From IMG/VR virus record IMGVR_UViG_3300021256_000056, positions 32,001-96,000 of that record: a stretch of DNA of 64,000 bases, one strand, 5' to 3'. The notes below the pieces were generated by a model. The model was not told where the DNA came from. It was given only the letters and a program-made list of their open reading frames with translations, and made no database searches. A program made the position numbers and the translations under genes. Below are positions 6,146-28,250 of the stretch, in pieces. The first letter of the stretch is position 1; each line of letters begins with the position of its first letter. The stretch is from a virus (lineage: Duplodnaviria; Caudoviricetes).

Positions 6146-6220
6146 AGCCCATGACTGGATTCGAACCAGTGAAAAATCGGTTTTGCAGACCGACCGTTTA
6201 GACCACTCGCGCACATGGGC
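6146..6220 (-). tRNA. tRNA-Cys(GCA)
   Basis: Cloverleaf, loop ctgcaaa. Confidence 0.92.
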
Positions 6221-6235
6221 ATAGTTTTTAATTTG

Positions 6236-6308
6236 AGCCGAGGACAGGAGTCGAACCTGCAACCCCCTGATTACAAGTCAGGTGCTCTACCATTAAAGCT
6301 ACCTCGGC
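6236..6308 (-). tRNA. tRNA-Thr(UGU)
   Basis: Cloverleaf, loop cttgtaa. Confidence 0.92.
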
Positions 6309-6640
6309 AAAAACCTCGCGTATTTTTCGCCCCGCGAGGTGAGCTCCTTGCACGCCTATTTATATACCGTCCGCCAGAATTACGGTGGTGCCCCATTTTG
6401 GCGCCTTCGGGGCAATTGGGGGTTGGCCCTTCTGAAGAAAACGCTTTGCGAATATCCTCAATGGCGGCCAATACCATAAAAATAAGTCACAACATTGCAC
6501 CATCACGCCTTCCACGGTTGAATGTCGCACAGGTGGTTTCTATAATCTAATTTCAGCCGAAACTAGGCTTGCACCTGTGAAGTTTATCCGCGCTAACGTC
6601 TCCAGTTTATTAAGACTGGTGTGCTACTTGTGACTTTAAC

Positions 6641-6763
6641 AGAAAATCATTTAAAAGACTGGATTCGAACCAGCGTTTCCCCTGCTTTCCAGAGGCGTTC
6701 TGACCCCTAAACTACATGTCCGAAGTTTTGGTGGACACAGGTAAAACTTGCTGTTGGTTTTCT
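6641..6763 (-). ncRNA. ACAGCAA-module RNA enclosing tRNA-like D and T arms
   Basis: agaaaacca-ACAGCAA ... gtagtttaggggtcagaac ... gctggttcgaatccagt ... tgattttct. Confidence 0.7.
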
Positions 6764-10101: not shown

Positions 10102-10216
10102 TCGGGGAAGAAGGAATCGAACCTCCGCTAACGGCACCCAAAGCAATTTGACGCTGCTGTTAGTTTTCAATACTGAAAACATTTAAAACGTCGTGCTACC
10201 ACTACACTATTCCCCA
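10102..10216 (-). tRNA. tRNA-Pro(UGG) with 44-nt ACAGCA-module insert at 29/30 (10145-10188)
   Basis: Removing the insert gives acggc-tttgggt-gccgt; G72/A73 Pro identity. Confidence 0.8.
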
Positions 10217-10223
10217 AAATTTG

Positions 10224-10340
10224 TGAGGAGGATGGGACTCGGACCCATGACCCACGGGTTAAAAGCCAAGGTGAGGTTGCTGTTAGTTTTCAGTACAGAA
10301 AACGTTTTATACGTTGCTCTACCAACTGAGCTACCTCCTC
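10224..10340 (-). tRNA. tRNA-Lys(UUU) with 44-nt ACAGCAA-module insert at 29/30 (10268-10311)
   Basis: Removing the insert gives acggg-cttttaa-cccgt. Confidence 0.82.
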
Positions 10341-11010: not shown

Positions 11011-11018
11011 ATATTGTG

Positions 11019-11421
11019 TGGAGATGGGCGGACTCGAACCGCCGTTTTTCAAGCTTGCAAACTGCTTTCTACGCGCTTAGTTTTCTTTATGATTCGTTGG
11101 GCACTGGTGGAAAACACACCTGAGTACTCAATATATCATTCTGGAAACGTAGCCAAACCAGACGAATGAAACTGGCCTGCCGCTCTCGATTTGATGATGC
11201 CCTCATATTGTGAATTCAACCAAGACCAAACATTCACGAGGACAATCGTCCCGACACATCCTAGGTGCCGATGGATTAGGCTTATTTGCTTAGCAAATTA
11301 AGCGGCGATTGCATAGGTGTTGTTGCCAACTAATTTTTTTGATATTTGTTTAAAGGCTAAAAATCAAAACGCCTGCGTGCTTACAATCCTCATAGATTGA
11401 AATCAAAACCAAAACATCCCC
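11019..11421 (-). ncRNA. ssrA: tmRNA, tag GNNTYAIAA
   Basis: 5' ggggatg, 3' ggcggttcgagtccgcccatctcca, internal ggcaacaacacctatgcaatcgccgcttaa. Confidence 0.93.
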
Positions 11422-12213: not shown

Positions 12214-12372
12214 GTCGCGCATCTTGGAATCGAACCAAGTTCCTCTGGGGTTAGCAGCCCAGCGAGTTTTGTGTCTCCGCAGACTTGCAATCTACAATTA
12301 AGCGTCGTTGCAACTCAACTTAATCTGAATGTAGTATCCGCTTCTGTGCGTCTCCAACACTCTCATACGCGG
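12214..12372 (-). ncRNA. tRNA-like RNA with GCU anticodon arm and large insertion 5' of it
   Basis: cgcgta/tgcgcg acceptor, ctggg-ctgctaa-cccca, T arm cttggttcgattccaag. Confidence 0.55.
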
Positions 12373-12505
12373 ACAAGGCAGCGTGTATGCATCACCTTCT
12401 GACCTTGTAGAACGGACTTATATACATACCGTAACATTTTCGTAGTATGTAATTTCATCTGTTTTGTGTCTCCGACGAGGCTCGAACTCGTGACCCCCAC
12501 ATTAA

Positions 12506-13341
12506 CCTACCCAATATAGTTGCCTATACCATCTTACGATGTTTGAGTTTGGACCATTTCTTATCCATGCCACTTCGTGGTTTAGGTGGTGGTGTATGGC
12601 CTCTACACATTTATGCAAAAAAGCAATTTAGCCCGACGTTTTCCCAGGGGGATGTTCGTCGAATTAGCCACCATTCACGACAAGGGTTTCCCCTCGTGTG
12701 CTCCTTTCTTAGATTCACGTAAACATGAAATGCATAACCCGCTTTTAGTTTCCCTATGAAGCGGTTTTCCACATTTTTTGCACACGTGTTTGTACGTGTG
12801 GGTGTGTGTGGTTGTTTTAACCCCCTTCATATTTTTCTTTCCAGCGTAACTATCTGTTTGTGAATGGCAATTAGGACACAAAATCACTAGATTGTCGAGT
12901 TCATTATTAAAATGGTCTCCATCTTTATGATGAACTTGCAACGTTATGCTTTTACCATGCCACTCAGAAATTCCGCATTCTGGATTTTCGCACTTATATT
13001 CTTTCAGCCCCAATGAAATTAGTTTTTTCATTAATTCCGAAGATTTTATAAGTTTGTCTTTAACAAAAAAATCCTCTTTGTCTAGACCGTTGTGATTTTT
13101 ATTTCCGATGTTCGATTTTTGTCCAGTGAAATGTGAGGTATCTAGGTCGTATTCTTTCACGTATTTGTAAAACGTTCTATAATTACCACCAACAGGTTTC
13201 CATCCCACAGCACGACAAAAATCAGCAACACTAAAAACACGTTTACATATCTCTATTGCCTCTTCTTTACCAATTACATTTTTTGTCATAATAACACTTT
13301 TATAATAAATAGTGTTTAATTGGTAAAAGTAAGAAGATTTG
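12506..13341 (-). mobile_element. group I intron (IC3-like) with HNH ORF, inserted after U34
   Basis: 5' exon ends U, intron ends G; P/Q/R/S-like aattcgacgaa, cgtcgggctaaat, gtgtagaggc, aagaaatggtcc. Confidence 0.88.
12675..13289 (-). CDS. intron-encoded HNH homing endonuclease
   Basis: LQVHHKDGDHFNNELDNLVILCPNCHSQT. Confidence 0.9.
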   Translation of the reverse strand: MTKNVIGKEEAIEICKRVFSVADFCRAVGWKPVGGNYRTFYKYVKEYDLDTSHFTGQKSNIGNKNHNGLDKEDFFVKDKLIKSSELMKKLISLGLKEYKCENPECGISEWHGKSITLQVHHKDGDHFNNELDNLVILCPNCHSQTDSYAGKKNMKGVKTTTHTHTYKHVCKKCGKPLHRETKSGLCISCLRESKKGAHEGKPLS

Positions 13342-13738: not shown

Positions 13739-13748
13739 AGAAATTTTG

Positions 13749-14466
13749 TGGGACAGGAGGGACTCGAACCCTCACCCTCCTTAGAGGACTGGTTCCTCGT
13801 ACCACTATGGCTTTCGCCACCAAAACAACTTCGAACTTGCGGGTTGGATTTTCAAGGCTTGTACACCCCCAGGTTGTCTTGTTTGTGGTCTGGACTGTAT
13901 CTTAACCATATTGAAATCTAGCTAGTAAACATCCTTATACTTATAGTCTCGTAGTTTAATGTGGGTCACGCGACCACCCCTAGCTCATATAAGCATGTTA
14001 TTTCAACTTAGGCTCCTCCTGTATCTCGTCTCTACACACTGTCTATTATTCTATATCTGCGGTCCCTTGTTCTCAGGCTATATTCATTACTGAAGTATAG
14101 TCTTGCAGTATAGATTTTAACATTGGCTCGGCATTAGCATATTATTCCTATTGGGGTTTTACAAGTTTCGCTTATAGTTTTATTCCGATATTCACGGTGT
14201 CCCACAAAACCAATATTTGAATAACTTAGCTTTCACCGAATTAGGAAGGTTCTACATAACGGGTTTCCCCGCGTCCACAGGCTACTCTCCCGTTTGGGAT
14301 TGTTTACCTTATCTATCACGCTTCGCAGCGTCCTGTGGTATGCACTCAAGTTAAACGGGCGCCTATCCGCATACAGAGTGTCTCAGTCTGTAATCTCCAA
14401 GTATAGGTTATCAGTATAAGCCCGTTGTTCATAAGACCAGCGCGTCTACCATTCCGCCACTGTCCC
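13749..14466 (-). tRNA. tRNA-Leu(UAG) split by group I intron
   Basis: Exons 14433-14466 and 13749-13797 join to ctggt-cttagga-accag. Confidence 0.9.
13798..14432 (-). mobile_element. group I intron after U34, no ORF
   Basis: U at 5' splice site, terminal G; core segments shared with introns at 26726 and 27550. Confidence 0.88.
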
Positions 14467-15952: not shown

Positions 15953-16074
15953 AGCTGATGCAAGGAATCGAACCTCGGTCTGCGGCTTGGAATGCATTTC
16001 TTGATTTTTGCTGTCCGTAACCTTGTCAGAATACCTTATTTGAAAACGCTGTGCTACCACTACACCACATCAGC
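15953..16074 (-). tRNA. tRNA-Gly(UCC) with 51-nt ACAGCAA-module insert at 29/30 (15996-16046)
   Basis: Removing the insert gives gcggc-attccaa-gccgc. Confidence 0.8.
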
Positions 16075-19524: not shown

Positions 19525-19605
19525 GCTGGGGTATGGTGATTCGAACACCAATTATTCTCACGCCCTTAGGGCTTGAGGCGGTACTACCGTTGTACTACAC
19601 CCCAG
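19525..19605 (-). ncRNA. pseudo-tRNA with extended anticodon arm
   Basis: ctggggt acceptor, D and T arms, ctcaagccc-taa-gggcgtgag arm. Confidence 0.5.
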
Positions 19606-22137: not shown

Positions 22138-22154
22138 GTTTTTCGTAAATTTTG

Positions 22155-22226
22155 TGCTCCATACAGGAATCGAACCCGTCTAAGAACGTTTTAGGGACGC
22201 CCGCTCGGCCACTGAGCCAATGGAGC
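22155..22226 (-). tRNA. tRNA with CUA anticodon (amber suppressor candidate)
   Basis: gctccat/atggagc acceptor; ggcgt-ccCTAaa-acgtt; C33. Confidence 0.65.
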
Positions 22227-23982: not shown

Positions 23983-24089
23983 TTGCGATGGTAGGATTCG
24001 GACCTACGCTCTGAAACGATGTTTCATATCCTTGGCGCCCCAGGAAACACGGGAGTTGCCCCGCTGCTCTGACCACTGAGCTACACCGC
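23983..24089 (-). ncRNA. tRNA-like RNA with three hairpins replacing the anticodon arm
   Basis: gcggtg acceptor, gctcagtggtcagagc D arm, gtaggtccgaatcctac T arm. Confidence 0.6.
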
Positions 24090-24124
24090 AAAGTAAATAT
24101 ATGATAAAAGTTAAAGGTTTCTTA

Positions 24125-26608: not shown

Positions 26609-26674
26609 TTATTATAAATAGGCAAATAAAAAGAAAAACCACCATTTACACTTGTGTGTATTTGGTGGTTTTTG

Positions 26675-27289
26675 TGGCCCAGGCGGGACTCGAACCCGCA
26701 CGGCCCTTGCGGGCCAGCAGATTTTCTTACCACTATAGCTTTCACTACCTAAACAACTTCGAACAATCGGGTTGGATTTTCAAGGCTTTATACCCCCAGG
26801 TTGTATAGTTTGTGGTCTGGACTGTATCTTAACCATATTGAAATCTTGCAAGTGTCATACGCATAGTAAACTATAAACATTATAGGTGGAGTCTCTCAGG
26901 TTCCGCTCTTCCTATAAGAGGCTATAGTCTGTTGCCGTAATTCTATTTCAACTTAGGCTCCTCCTGTATCTCGTCTCTACACACATACGTTGCGGGGATG
27001 TCCCGAAAACAAGGCTACTTGCTGCCCTCTGCTACCTTATTAGGGTAGATAGCGTTGCAATTACTTGTTCGTACTTGGCTCGGTATTACCAACAGCGTTA
27101 ATTTTCTCCACTCCATAGAATTCAACTCATTGGCAGTAATCTTCCAATGCTTCACATCTACTTCAACGCTTCCTTGAATTTTAACCTGCTAAGGTTTCAC
27201 CGAATTAGGGAGGTTCTACATCTCTTGTTTCCAAGAGCGCACTCAAATTTTCATTAAGTCTGCCGCGTATACCATTCCGCCACTAGGCC
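26675..27289 (-). tRNA. tRNA-Leu(UAA) split by group I intron
   Basis: Exons 27256-27289 and 26675-26725 join to gcaga-cttaaaa-tctgc. Confidence 0.92.
26726..27255 (-). mobile_element. group I intron after U34
   Basis: U/G splice boundaries; shared core. Confidence 0.9.
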
Positions 27290-27512
27290 ATAATTTAGTC
27301 TCATATTTAGAGGTATGGTAATTAGCTTTACGACCTGCGTTCATACTCGGTGGGGCGACCATGCCCACCTTTCTTACTGGCGACCCGCATCATTTCATCG
27401 GAGGTCAACATTGTGAATCAGCATTACCTGGTCTTCAACATTAGTATCTTCTTTCCGTCATTCGGAATCTTTTGCCAATCTCTAAACGTTTATTTTCAAA
27501 GAACTTCTTTTG

Positions 27513-28250
27513 TGGTCCCTGTAGGACTTGAACCTACGACCATCTGATTCGTACCACCATAGCTTTTACTACCAAAATTGATTACATGAACAAATCCTAA
27601 GTACCGTATCAGCCTTAAGCCGATTATGCCTACATTATGACCGTCCTACTATAACGGTGTAATCAGTCCTAACATTGCTTCATCCTATTAGGGCACTTTA
27701 ATTTTGTTTGTGGTCTGGACTGTCTCTTAACCATATTGAAATCTTGCAAGTAAGTATTGATGTTTCGAGCATCTACCTCGCTCTTATCGAGCGGATATTC
27801 CATTACCTTCGGAAAATACAATTTCAACTTAGGCTCCTCCTGTATCTCGTCTCTACACACTGTCTAAACAAATAATTGAAATGTAGCTTAGATGTTCTAT
27901 TCTGTAATTCAAACATCAACGACTTTTCATTACATTTCCAACTAACATCGTACCTACAGACGCGATGAATTCATTTGTTTTAACATTGGCTCGGTATTAG
28001 CATATTTGGACTGTCTTCTTACACATAGATTCTAAACGACTGCTATCATTACTGAAATTCAGTTAACTATGTACTACTGTTGACAATACACCAACTAATT
28101 TAGACGATTATCCGATATATTCCTGTACATCCAAACTATAGCTTTTACCGAATTAGGGAGGTTCTACATCCAAGGTTTCCCTTGGTGCACACAATTTCTT
28201 TTCAAAGAACTAATGAGTCAGGTGCTCTAACCAAACTGAGCTAAGGGACC
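27513..28250 (-). tRNA. tRNA-Ile2(CAU) split by group I intron
   Basis: Exons 28213-28250 and 27513-27549 join to ctga-ctcataa-tcag; ggtccct acceptor is ileX-like. Confidence 0.85.
27550..28212 (-). mobile_element. group I intron after U36
   Basis: U/G splice boundaries; shared core. Confidence 0.88.

Follow-up and report, generated by a model that had tools for sequence, protein, structure and literature searches.

Split tRNA genes in a huge-phage tRNA array: enlarged introns of probable IC3 group I type

The interrupted tRNA genes and their setting

The window, meaning the whole stretch of 64,000 nucleotides that was analysed, comprises bases 32001-96000 of a 195-kb IMG/VR virus record (CheckV completeness 53%). 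ARAGORN called 35 tRNA genes and a tmRNA in it, all on the minus strand, and genes of phage type (ThyX, ClpP, a primase and a SprT-like protein) lie near the split tRNA genes described below. This combination of a tRNA array, a tmRNA and phage-type genes identifies the window as part of a huge phage genome. The reading frames near the split genes for the CAU tRNA and tRNA-Leu(UAA) are open in the standard code. The phage-encoded tmRNA is found at 11016-11421 (−), and one of the ARAGORN calls, at 22154-22226 (−), is a tRNA with the anticodon CUA (“Pyl”), a potential amber suppressor.

Two neighbouring tRNA genes on the minus strand are interrupted. The gene of a CAU tRNA (Met or Ile2) extends from 28249 to 27513 and is cut after U36 by an ORF-less intron of 663 nt (intron C, 28212..27550); its 5′ exon (28213..28249) ends in CUCAU, with U36 as the −1 nucleotide, and its 3′ exon (27513..27549) begins with AAUCAG. 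The gene of tRNA-Leu(UAA) follows at 27289-26676 and is cut after U34 by an ORF-less intron of 530 nt (intron B, 27255..26726). Here the 5′ exon (27256..27289) ends in GACUU, with U34 as the −1 nucleotide, while the 3′ exon (26676..26725) begins with AAAAUCUGC, contains a long variable arm and does not encode CCA. A third gene, for tRNA-Leu(UAG), is located approximately 13 kb away on the same strand (14466-13748, exons 14433-14466 and 13748-13797) and is cut after U34 by 635 nt (intron A, 14432..13798).

Removal of introns A, B and C in silico yields canonical cloverleafs (76 nt in the case of the CAU product), and joining of the exons restores a normal anticodon loop of 7 nt. The intron lengths reported by ARAGORN with introns allowed are identical to those read from the sequence, and uninterrupted homologues of the CAU tRNA in two other contigs (L006 and L010) run across the proposed junction. 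The adjacency of two intron-split tRNA genes and the difference in insertion site (34/35 versus 36/37), both stated in a preliminary description of this DNA, are borne out by these exact boundaries and clean spliced products, with A and B after U34 and C after U36. The name Ile2(CAU) given there is right as to the anticodon; the Ile2 identity is not proven. Compared to E. coli tRNA genes, the 5′ half of the CAU tRNA is weakly Met-like (best match tRNA-Met, E 0.3) and the 3′ half weakly Ile-like (tRNA-Ile, E 1). The pairs C4-G69 and C5-G68, which we take to be TilS determinants, are present in the spliced cloverleaf. Two further CAU tRNAs are called in the window, and the choice between Met and Ile2 for the split gene is not decided by elimination.

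Directly after the tRNA-Leu(UAA) gene a hairpin (ACCACCA...UGGUGGU) followed by a U-run was read by eye at 26627..26669 on the minus strand. It is a probable intrinsic terminator of a transcription unit containing the CAU and Leu genes. A simple scan for sigma-70 promoters and terminators performed at chance level and did not list this hairpin, because its stem contains an internal mismatch. The motif GTTCWTTGAAA is a repeated feature a short distance 5′ of tRNA genes, both in this phage and in related ones (window 28200-28210 and 27490-27505 on the minus strand; L004 near 1480; L010 near 9585) and is also present within the P1 loop of intron C; it may act as a promoter or as a signal for processing.

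A fourth group I intron, more distant from the other three, was found on the minus strand at 12506..13341 (836 nt), where it interrupts tRNA-Lys(UUU) after U34. The spliced exons fold as a cloverleaf, and the gene is missed by both ARAGORN and Rfam. Its compact core (12498-12719) is preceded by a 204-aa HNH-like ORF (12675-13289), which lies downstream of the 5′ splice site and ahead of the guide and has weak HNH matches in Pfam. It is the only one of the four introns in the window with such an ORF. Default detection thus misses four tRNA genes of the window: Leu(UAG), one Leu(UAA), one CAU tRNA and Lys(UUU).

Other irregular tRNAs occur in the same array. Four Rfam tRNA matches are 107-122 nt long (10102-10216, 10224-10340, 15953-16074 and 23983-24090, minus strand) and carry inserts of approximately 35-50 nt; they are not called by ARAGORN, and as the size of the inserts is far below that of group I or group II introns they belong to neither type. 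An orphan T-arm with an acceptor 3′ strand (CTTGGTTCGATTCCAAG...GCGCGACA) lies at approximately 12215-12330 (−), where no tRNA is called, and could be another split or degraded tRNA.

Core structure and group I models

Introns A, B and C have three core blocks in common. A 36-mer GTAGAGACGAGATACAGGAGGAGCCTAAGTTGAAAT and a 23-mer ATGTAGAACCTYCCTAATTCGGT occur in three copies each on the minus strand, with none expected in shuffled sequences, and a third block covering P8′-J8/7-P7′-P9 is the same in all three introns except for one base. The preliminary description had reported three common blocks in the introns at 13798, 26726 and 27550; their exact positions are confirmed, with the one variable base in the third block as an addition. 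Within the 195-kb record, no further copies of the core blocks were found beyond the three introns.

The blocks fit into a group I core. In intron B the internal guide sequence GAGU is located at 27244-27241, P2 is a GAAA hairpin, and P4 is formed by 27204-27199 and 27084-27079. The 5′ strand of P7 lies within 26982-26973 and its 3′ strand at 26823-26819, the P8 receptor at 26957-26945 / 26844-26833, P9 at 26816-26812 paired with 26733-26729, and the omega-G at 26726. The corresponding elements of intron C are the guide GUGU (28192-28189), the P7 5′ strand (within 27858-27849), the P8 receptor (27833-27821 / 27742-27731), the P7 3′ strand (27721-27717) and the omega-G (27550), all on the minus strand. 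The last nucleotide of each of the three introns is the omega-G, within a terminal GGUA(A/C)G.

The guides match the exons on both sides. P1 consists of CUU/GAGU in B, CUU/GAGU in A and CAU/GUGU in C, that is three to four pairs each with a U.G pair at the splice site, and the three bases just 5′ of the guide allow a P10 of UUU/AAA in B, CUU/AGG in A and AUU/AAU in C. Across the family the guide covaries with the host tRNA and with the site (33/34, 34/35 or 36/37); in relatives inserted after nucleotide 33 a GGUU guide pairs with ...ACU.

A, B and C share a GAAA loop in L2 and an 11-nt receptor in P8 (CCUAAG/UAUGG), a layout which presumably corresponds to the Azoarcus-type clamp. A second GAAA loop, in L9, with a receptor-like P5 is also kept in the core, the exception being L9 of intron C, which reads AAAA. 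P7 of the trio has four standard pairs compared to six in compact relatives, with the two distal pairs missing, and its G(A)GAC/GUCC element with the bulged A is invariant in 20 out of 20 aligned sequences. Minimum free energies were no better than those of shuffled sequences (z −0.05 and −0.5).

The group I model of Rfam (RF00028, Intron_gpI; cutoff 50 bits) does not recognise these introns. Runs at the gathering threshold and at E<=10 gave no match in the window, in a 2.1-kb region or with a single intron as query, and the whole record likewise contained no group I match. A similarity search of phage DNA had one match only, LR756501, a 735-kb phage whose tRNA-Leu(UAA) contains a compact intron of approximately 200 nt with the same blocks. 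This intron (L004) reaches 56.6 bits with RF00028, and two other compact relatives, from viral contigs, reach 58.9 (L015) and 68.6 bits (L023).

Five compact relatives and a P1-P9 structure drawn by hand served to build a model termed R1. In the window it scores 50.6 + 29 bits on intron B, 26.6 bits on C, 24.5 + 21.6 bits on A and 68.6 bits (E 4e-18) on the Lys(UUU) intron, and these four introns are its only matches both in the window and in the whole record. R1 spans other extended members from end to end (L024 with 103 bits, L009 with 87 bits, L021 with 78 bits); A, B and C are never spanned in one piece, even with the filters off.

Covariation was analysed in 20 family members of 192-646 nt over 55 pairs in P2-P9 and P9a, with P7 treated as a pseudoknot. 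Pairing is maintained in 90.6% of the cells, compared to 30-37% if the 3′ partners are slid by one to three columns. Changes on both sides occur in 26 pairs, the P3/P7 pseudoknot included, and none of 500 shuffles reached the observed values. As the compact relatives pass, R1 matches the trio, the covariation is strong and the guides track the exons, we regard the missing RF00028 match as a false negative. According to the preliminary description, a core failing the group I models would refute the proposal. Such a failure is literally what RF00028 returns, and it is overturned by the compact relatives, R1 and the covariation. The group I identity and the common ancestry of A, B and C are supported.

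The group I core together with the U(−1)/omega-G boundaries excludes a group II intron, an archaeal-type intron or an insertion sequence. Neither the ORF list nor Pfam gave an endonuclease ORF inside A, B or C. Two short ORFs, one of 63 aa within C and one of 65 aa in the spacer, were dismissed as they match no family. The insertion points are in agreement with established classes: Leu.3Ug and Ile2.5Ug are two of the four classical classes of bacterial tRNA introns, all of them IC3 (Williams 2020), and the IC3 positions after nucleotide 34 of tRNA-Leu(UAA) and after nucleotide 36 of the CAU tRNA are the ones occupied here.

Relatives, peripheral arms and origin of the trio

The exact core 29-mer had no match in viral contigs, and a degenerate P3-P4 pattern was required. 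With this pattern the family was found in 23 stretches of large viral contigs, and a block specific to the long subfamily was found in 105 metagenome stretches. We could resolve 54 split tRNAs, nearly all with U(−1)/omega-G boundaries and with intron lengths of 397-934 nt (median near 500). Leu-UAA accounts for 17 of the 54 with an insertion after nucleotide 34 and for 4 with an insertion after nucleotide 33; CAU tRNAs cut after nucleotide 36, Lys-UUU after 34 and Leu-UAG after 34 occur five times each, Arg-UCU after 34 four times, and a few are Gln and Ser tRNAs.

In bacteria the P3-P4 pattern occurs in CAU tRNAs of Burkholderiales cut after nucleotide 33 and in a tRNA-Leu(UAA) of Polynucleobacter (L038). 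The former (Rhodoferax and Polaromonas; L030, L033-L037, L039-L041) have compact introns with the guide GGUU; the same guide and the same site are also seen in phage Leu(UAA) introns (L007, L009). Bins assigned to Bacteroidales that match the pattern are probably phage contigs. One of them, a 287-kb contig (L031:2018-2896, minus strand), has a Leu(UAA) intron with an insert of approximately 440 nt between P7 and P3′, in the region of the catalytic core. Another Leu(UAA) intron of the long subfamily (L021, approximately 6150-6720, plus strand) ends in ...GGUACA, with A instead of the omega-G, and may be inactive or use another terminal nucleotide. Scrambled exons were observed in L024, L005 and L022: in L024:4517-4931(−) the intron is flanked by the 5′ half of a tRNA-Ser and by a Lys-like 3′ half, and in L005:1035-1550(−) a Ser 3′ half is present downstream with no tRNA 5′ half upstream. 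This suggests that recombination between intron copies rearranges tRNA arrays.

Anchored on the core, the introns of the trio are enlarged approximately three-fold, and the added length sits at the tips of the helices in ORF-less arms of approximately 60-150 nt. The P5 arm measures approximately 114 nt in B, 150 nt in C and 100 nt in A (compact relatives: approximately 20 nt), and the P6 arm approximately 96, 130 and 90 nt (compact relatives: approximately 25 nt). For P8 the values are approximately 100, 78 and 82 nt and for P9 approximately 58, 132 and 59 nt, again in the order B, C, A, with less than 10 nt in compact relatives in both cases. In intron A, L1 is further enlarged by 85 nt, and approximately 70 nt form an arm that separates the guide from P2. 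None of the arms of A, B and C contains an ORF matched by Pfam. As claimed in the preliminary description, the peripheral stretches differ between the three introns, both in the alignment and in a comparison of the arms.

Close counterparts of the arms are found in other contigs, with identities of 86-99%. For intron C, the P5 arm is 98.5% identical to that of L079, the P6 arm 96% to that of L085 (a Gln tRNA) and the P9 arm 99% to that of L088; for B, the P5 arm is 97% identical to L058 and the P8 arm 87% to L049; for A, the P8 arm is 99% identical to L116 and the P6 arm 95% to L069. Across four introns the P5 arm found in C shows 96-98% identity; seven of its paired columns vary, of which six retain the pairing, and in one sequence a single pair is lost. 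The P9 arm shows a similar pattern. The one arm common to two introns of the window is P9 (A and B), and all other arms with any match have their best match in other contigs. Since these best matches are spread over different contigs, the introns are recombining mosaics, and the arms appear to be cassettes which related introns in numerous tRNA genes of huge phages exchange by recombination.

These observations bear on the origin of the trio. Dozens of other large contigs, viral or metagenomic, carry this subfamily at identical sites of the same tRNAs, which does not fit a simple burst confined to one genome. A recent spread within this genome, in which one intron was copied from a tRNA-Leu into its CAU neighbour and into Leu(UAG) and had its guide retuned afterwards, would fit a core block of 41 nt without any difference among the three introns, one base found only in them (alignment column 446), and the P9 arm common to A and B. 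L010 would fit it as well: the order of the genes is unchanged there, the CAU tRNA has no intron, and the first 215 nt of the neighbouring Leu(UAA) intron show 97% identity to C. We nevertheless consider such a spread doubtful, although it deserves to be kept in mind. On 177 core columns the trio does not form a clade; the identities are 92% for C with L009 and L010, 86% for B with L005 and 89% for A with C. Other contigs carry the subfamily at the same positions (CAU/36, Leu-UAG/34, Leu-UAA/34), every matched arm except P9 of A and B is best matched outside this genome, and gene conversion can account for the local identity. Of the “intragenomic spread” put forward in the preliminary description, the unique base and the identical 41-nt block speak in its favor; the closest cores of B and C, the members of the subfamily at the same sites and nearly all arm twins point to other contigs, and the claim is only partly supported. 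The pattern is that of a population of related introns which, to judge from their sequences, undergo recombination and mutual conversion both inside single phage genomes and across them, with some local homogenisation here.

Splicing, possible roles and comparison with known systems

From the match of guides and exons we infer that A, B and C can splice themselves. The CAU tRNA and tRNA-Leu(UAA) would probably be cotranscribed, the transcript ending at the hairpin and U-run of 26627-26669. P1 would arise between the end of the 5′ exon (CUU or CAU) and the internal guide (GAGU or GUGU), and free guanosine would attack the cut site, which is marked by a U.G wobble. For P10, the first bases of the 3′ exon (AAA, AGG or AAU) would be bound by UUU, CUU or AUU immediately 5′ of the guide. 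The omega-G would then occupy the G-site in P7, and joining of the exons would produce the normal 7-nt anticodon loop.

Whether this capacity is still intact, and whether it matters to the phage, can be weighed from the same features. Many large group I introns require protein cofactors. The trio might be real group I RNAs that no longer self-splice and that, having a short P7 and large arms, need a phage or host protein or the arms themselves as folding aids. The four-pair P7 argues for such a dependence, and the conservation of the arms between contigs suggests that they are needed. We still regard it as unlikely, as all junctions of the catalytic core are retained, P7 has its bulged A and its G-C pair, both tetraloop/receptor clamps are present and no maturase-like ORF is found in or beside the introns. 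That the interrupted genes are decaying pseudogenes with dead insertions is scarcely credible. The idea could draw on damaged relatives, namely L021 without the omega-G, L024 with its mismatched tRNA halves and L005 without a 5′ exon, and on the gene content of the window, which has one other Leu(UAA) (19525-19604, ARAGORN) and no other Leu(UAG). Against it, the exons are intact and fold perfectly, the guides match both exons in all three introns, and the covariation in the core implies selection on the structure of the introns.

A role in the service of the phage has also to be considered. We saw no evidence for such a role, nor for the shielding of pre-tRNA anticodons that the preliminary description had put forward as a possibility. 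Anticodon nucleases are known to target some tRNAs with U34, and the family prefers U34 tRNAs (Leu, Lys, Arg-UCU, Gln, Ser-UGA); on this circumstantial basis the introns might hide the anticodon loops of precursors from host anticodon nucleases, or they might time the supply of tRNA. We consider this very improbable. A mature tRNA is unprotected once it is spliced, the preference for CUU loops is accounted for by the GAG guide, and the intron-less CAU gene in L010 indicates that the intron is dispensable. Improbable as well, if to a lesser degree, is the notion that the arms are exchangeable functional RNA cassettes, acting as docking sites for phage or host proteins or as sensors; it would explain why they stay 86-99% identical although they are reshuffled among tRNAs and phages. 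With cassette arms of this kind, certain phage tRNAs would mature only under given conditions, or the introns would take on a further task after excision. Taken together, A, B and C are very probably true IC3-type group I introns in the tRNA array of a huge phage, splicing in the classical way and carrying arms that recombine as cassettes.

As IC3-type introns they can be compared to known systems. Intron B resembles the classical bacterial tRNA-Leu(UAA) introns in its site (CUU|AAAA, after U34), the U.G pair in P1, the omega-G and the core blocks, and the compact Polynucleobacter intron (L038) aligns with B throughout the core. It differs from them in its length of 530 nt against approximately 200-250 nt, in the long ORF-less P5, P6, P8 and P9 arms, in the four-pair P7, in its phage host and in the absence of an Rfam match. 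Intron C is likewise similar to the classical introns of bacterial CAU tRNAs (Ile2.5Ug), with the position after CAU (nucleotide 36), a GUG-type guide, the GAAA L2 and the 11-nt P8 receptor. It is distinguished by its 663 nt, four large arms, the AAAA of L9, a phage host and a host tRNA that is either Met or Ile2.

The arms recall the peripheral extensions of other large group I introns, of which P5abc of Tetrahymena is an example: in both cases helical domains are added at the tips of core helices and the core is unchanged. In contrast to P5abc-type extensions, the introns of the window extend at least four tips at once on an IC3 scaffold and have arms that appear to be swapped as cassettes. 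Group I introns in protein genes of phages (T4 td, nrdB and sunY; Jug phages, PMC12880540) are self-splicing, as is proposed for those of the window, occur in large phage genomes and in some cases contain HNH ORFs, the counterpart in the window being the Lys(UUU) intron. The T4 and Jug-phage introns split protein genes, whereas those of the window split tRNA genes.

According to a review from 2014, every phage intron then known was located in a protein gene, despite the many tRNA genes of phages (PMC3984707). A paper on huge phages does not mention introns (PMC7162821), nor does the Jug-phage paper mention tRNA (PMC12880540), and our literature search, which included the time after 2014, found no paper on group I introns in phage tRNA genes. 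The IC3 tRNA sites are known; what is new is a long, ORF-less and Rfam-invisible subfamily with cassette-like arms.

The classical bacterial tRNA introns are thereby extended to tRNA genes of phages. A subfamily of introns of approximately 400-930 nt escapes both a standard ARAGORN run and Rfam, so the tRNA sets of huge phages are under-counted. The cassette-like arms amount to a series of domains that nature has added to a minimal, well-understood ribozyme scaffold. Homologous introns distributed across a tRNA array may further drive the rearrangement of tRNA halves, as seen in some of the related contigs.
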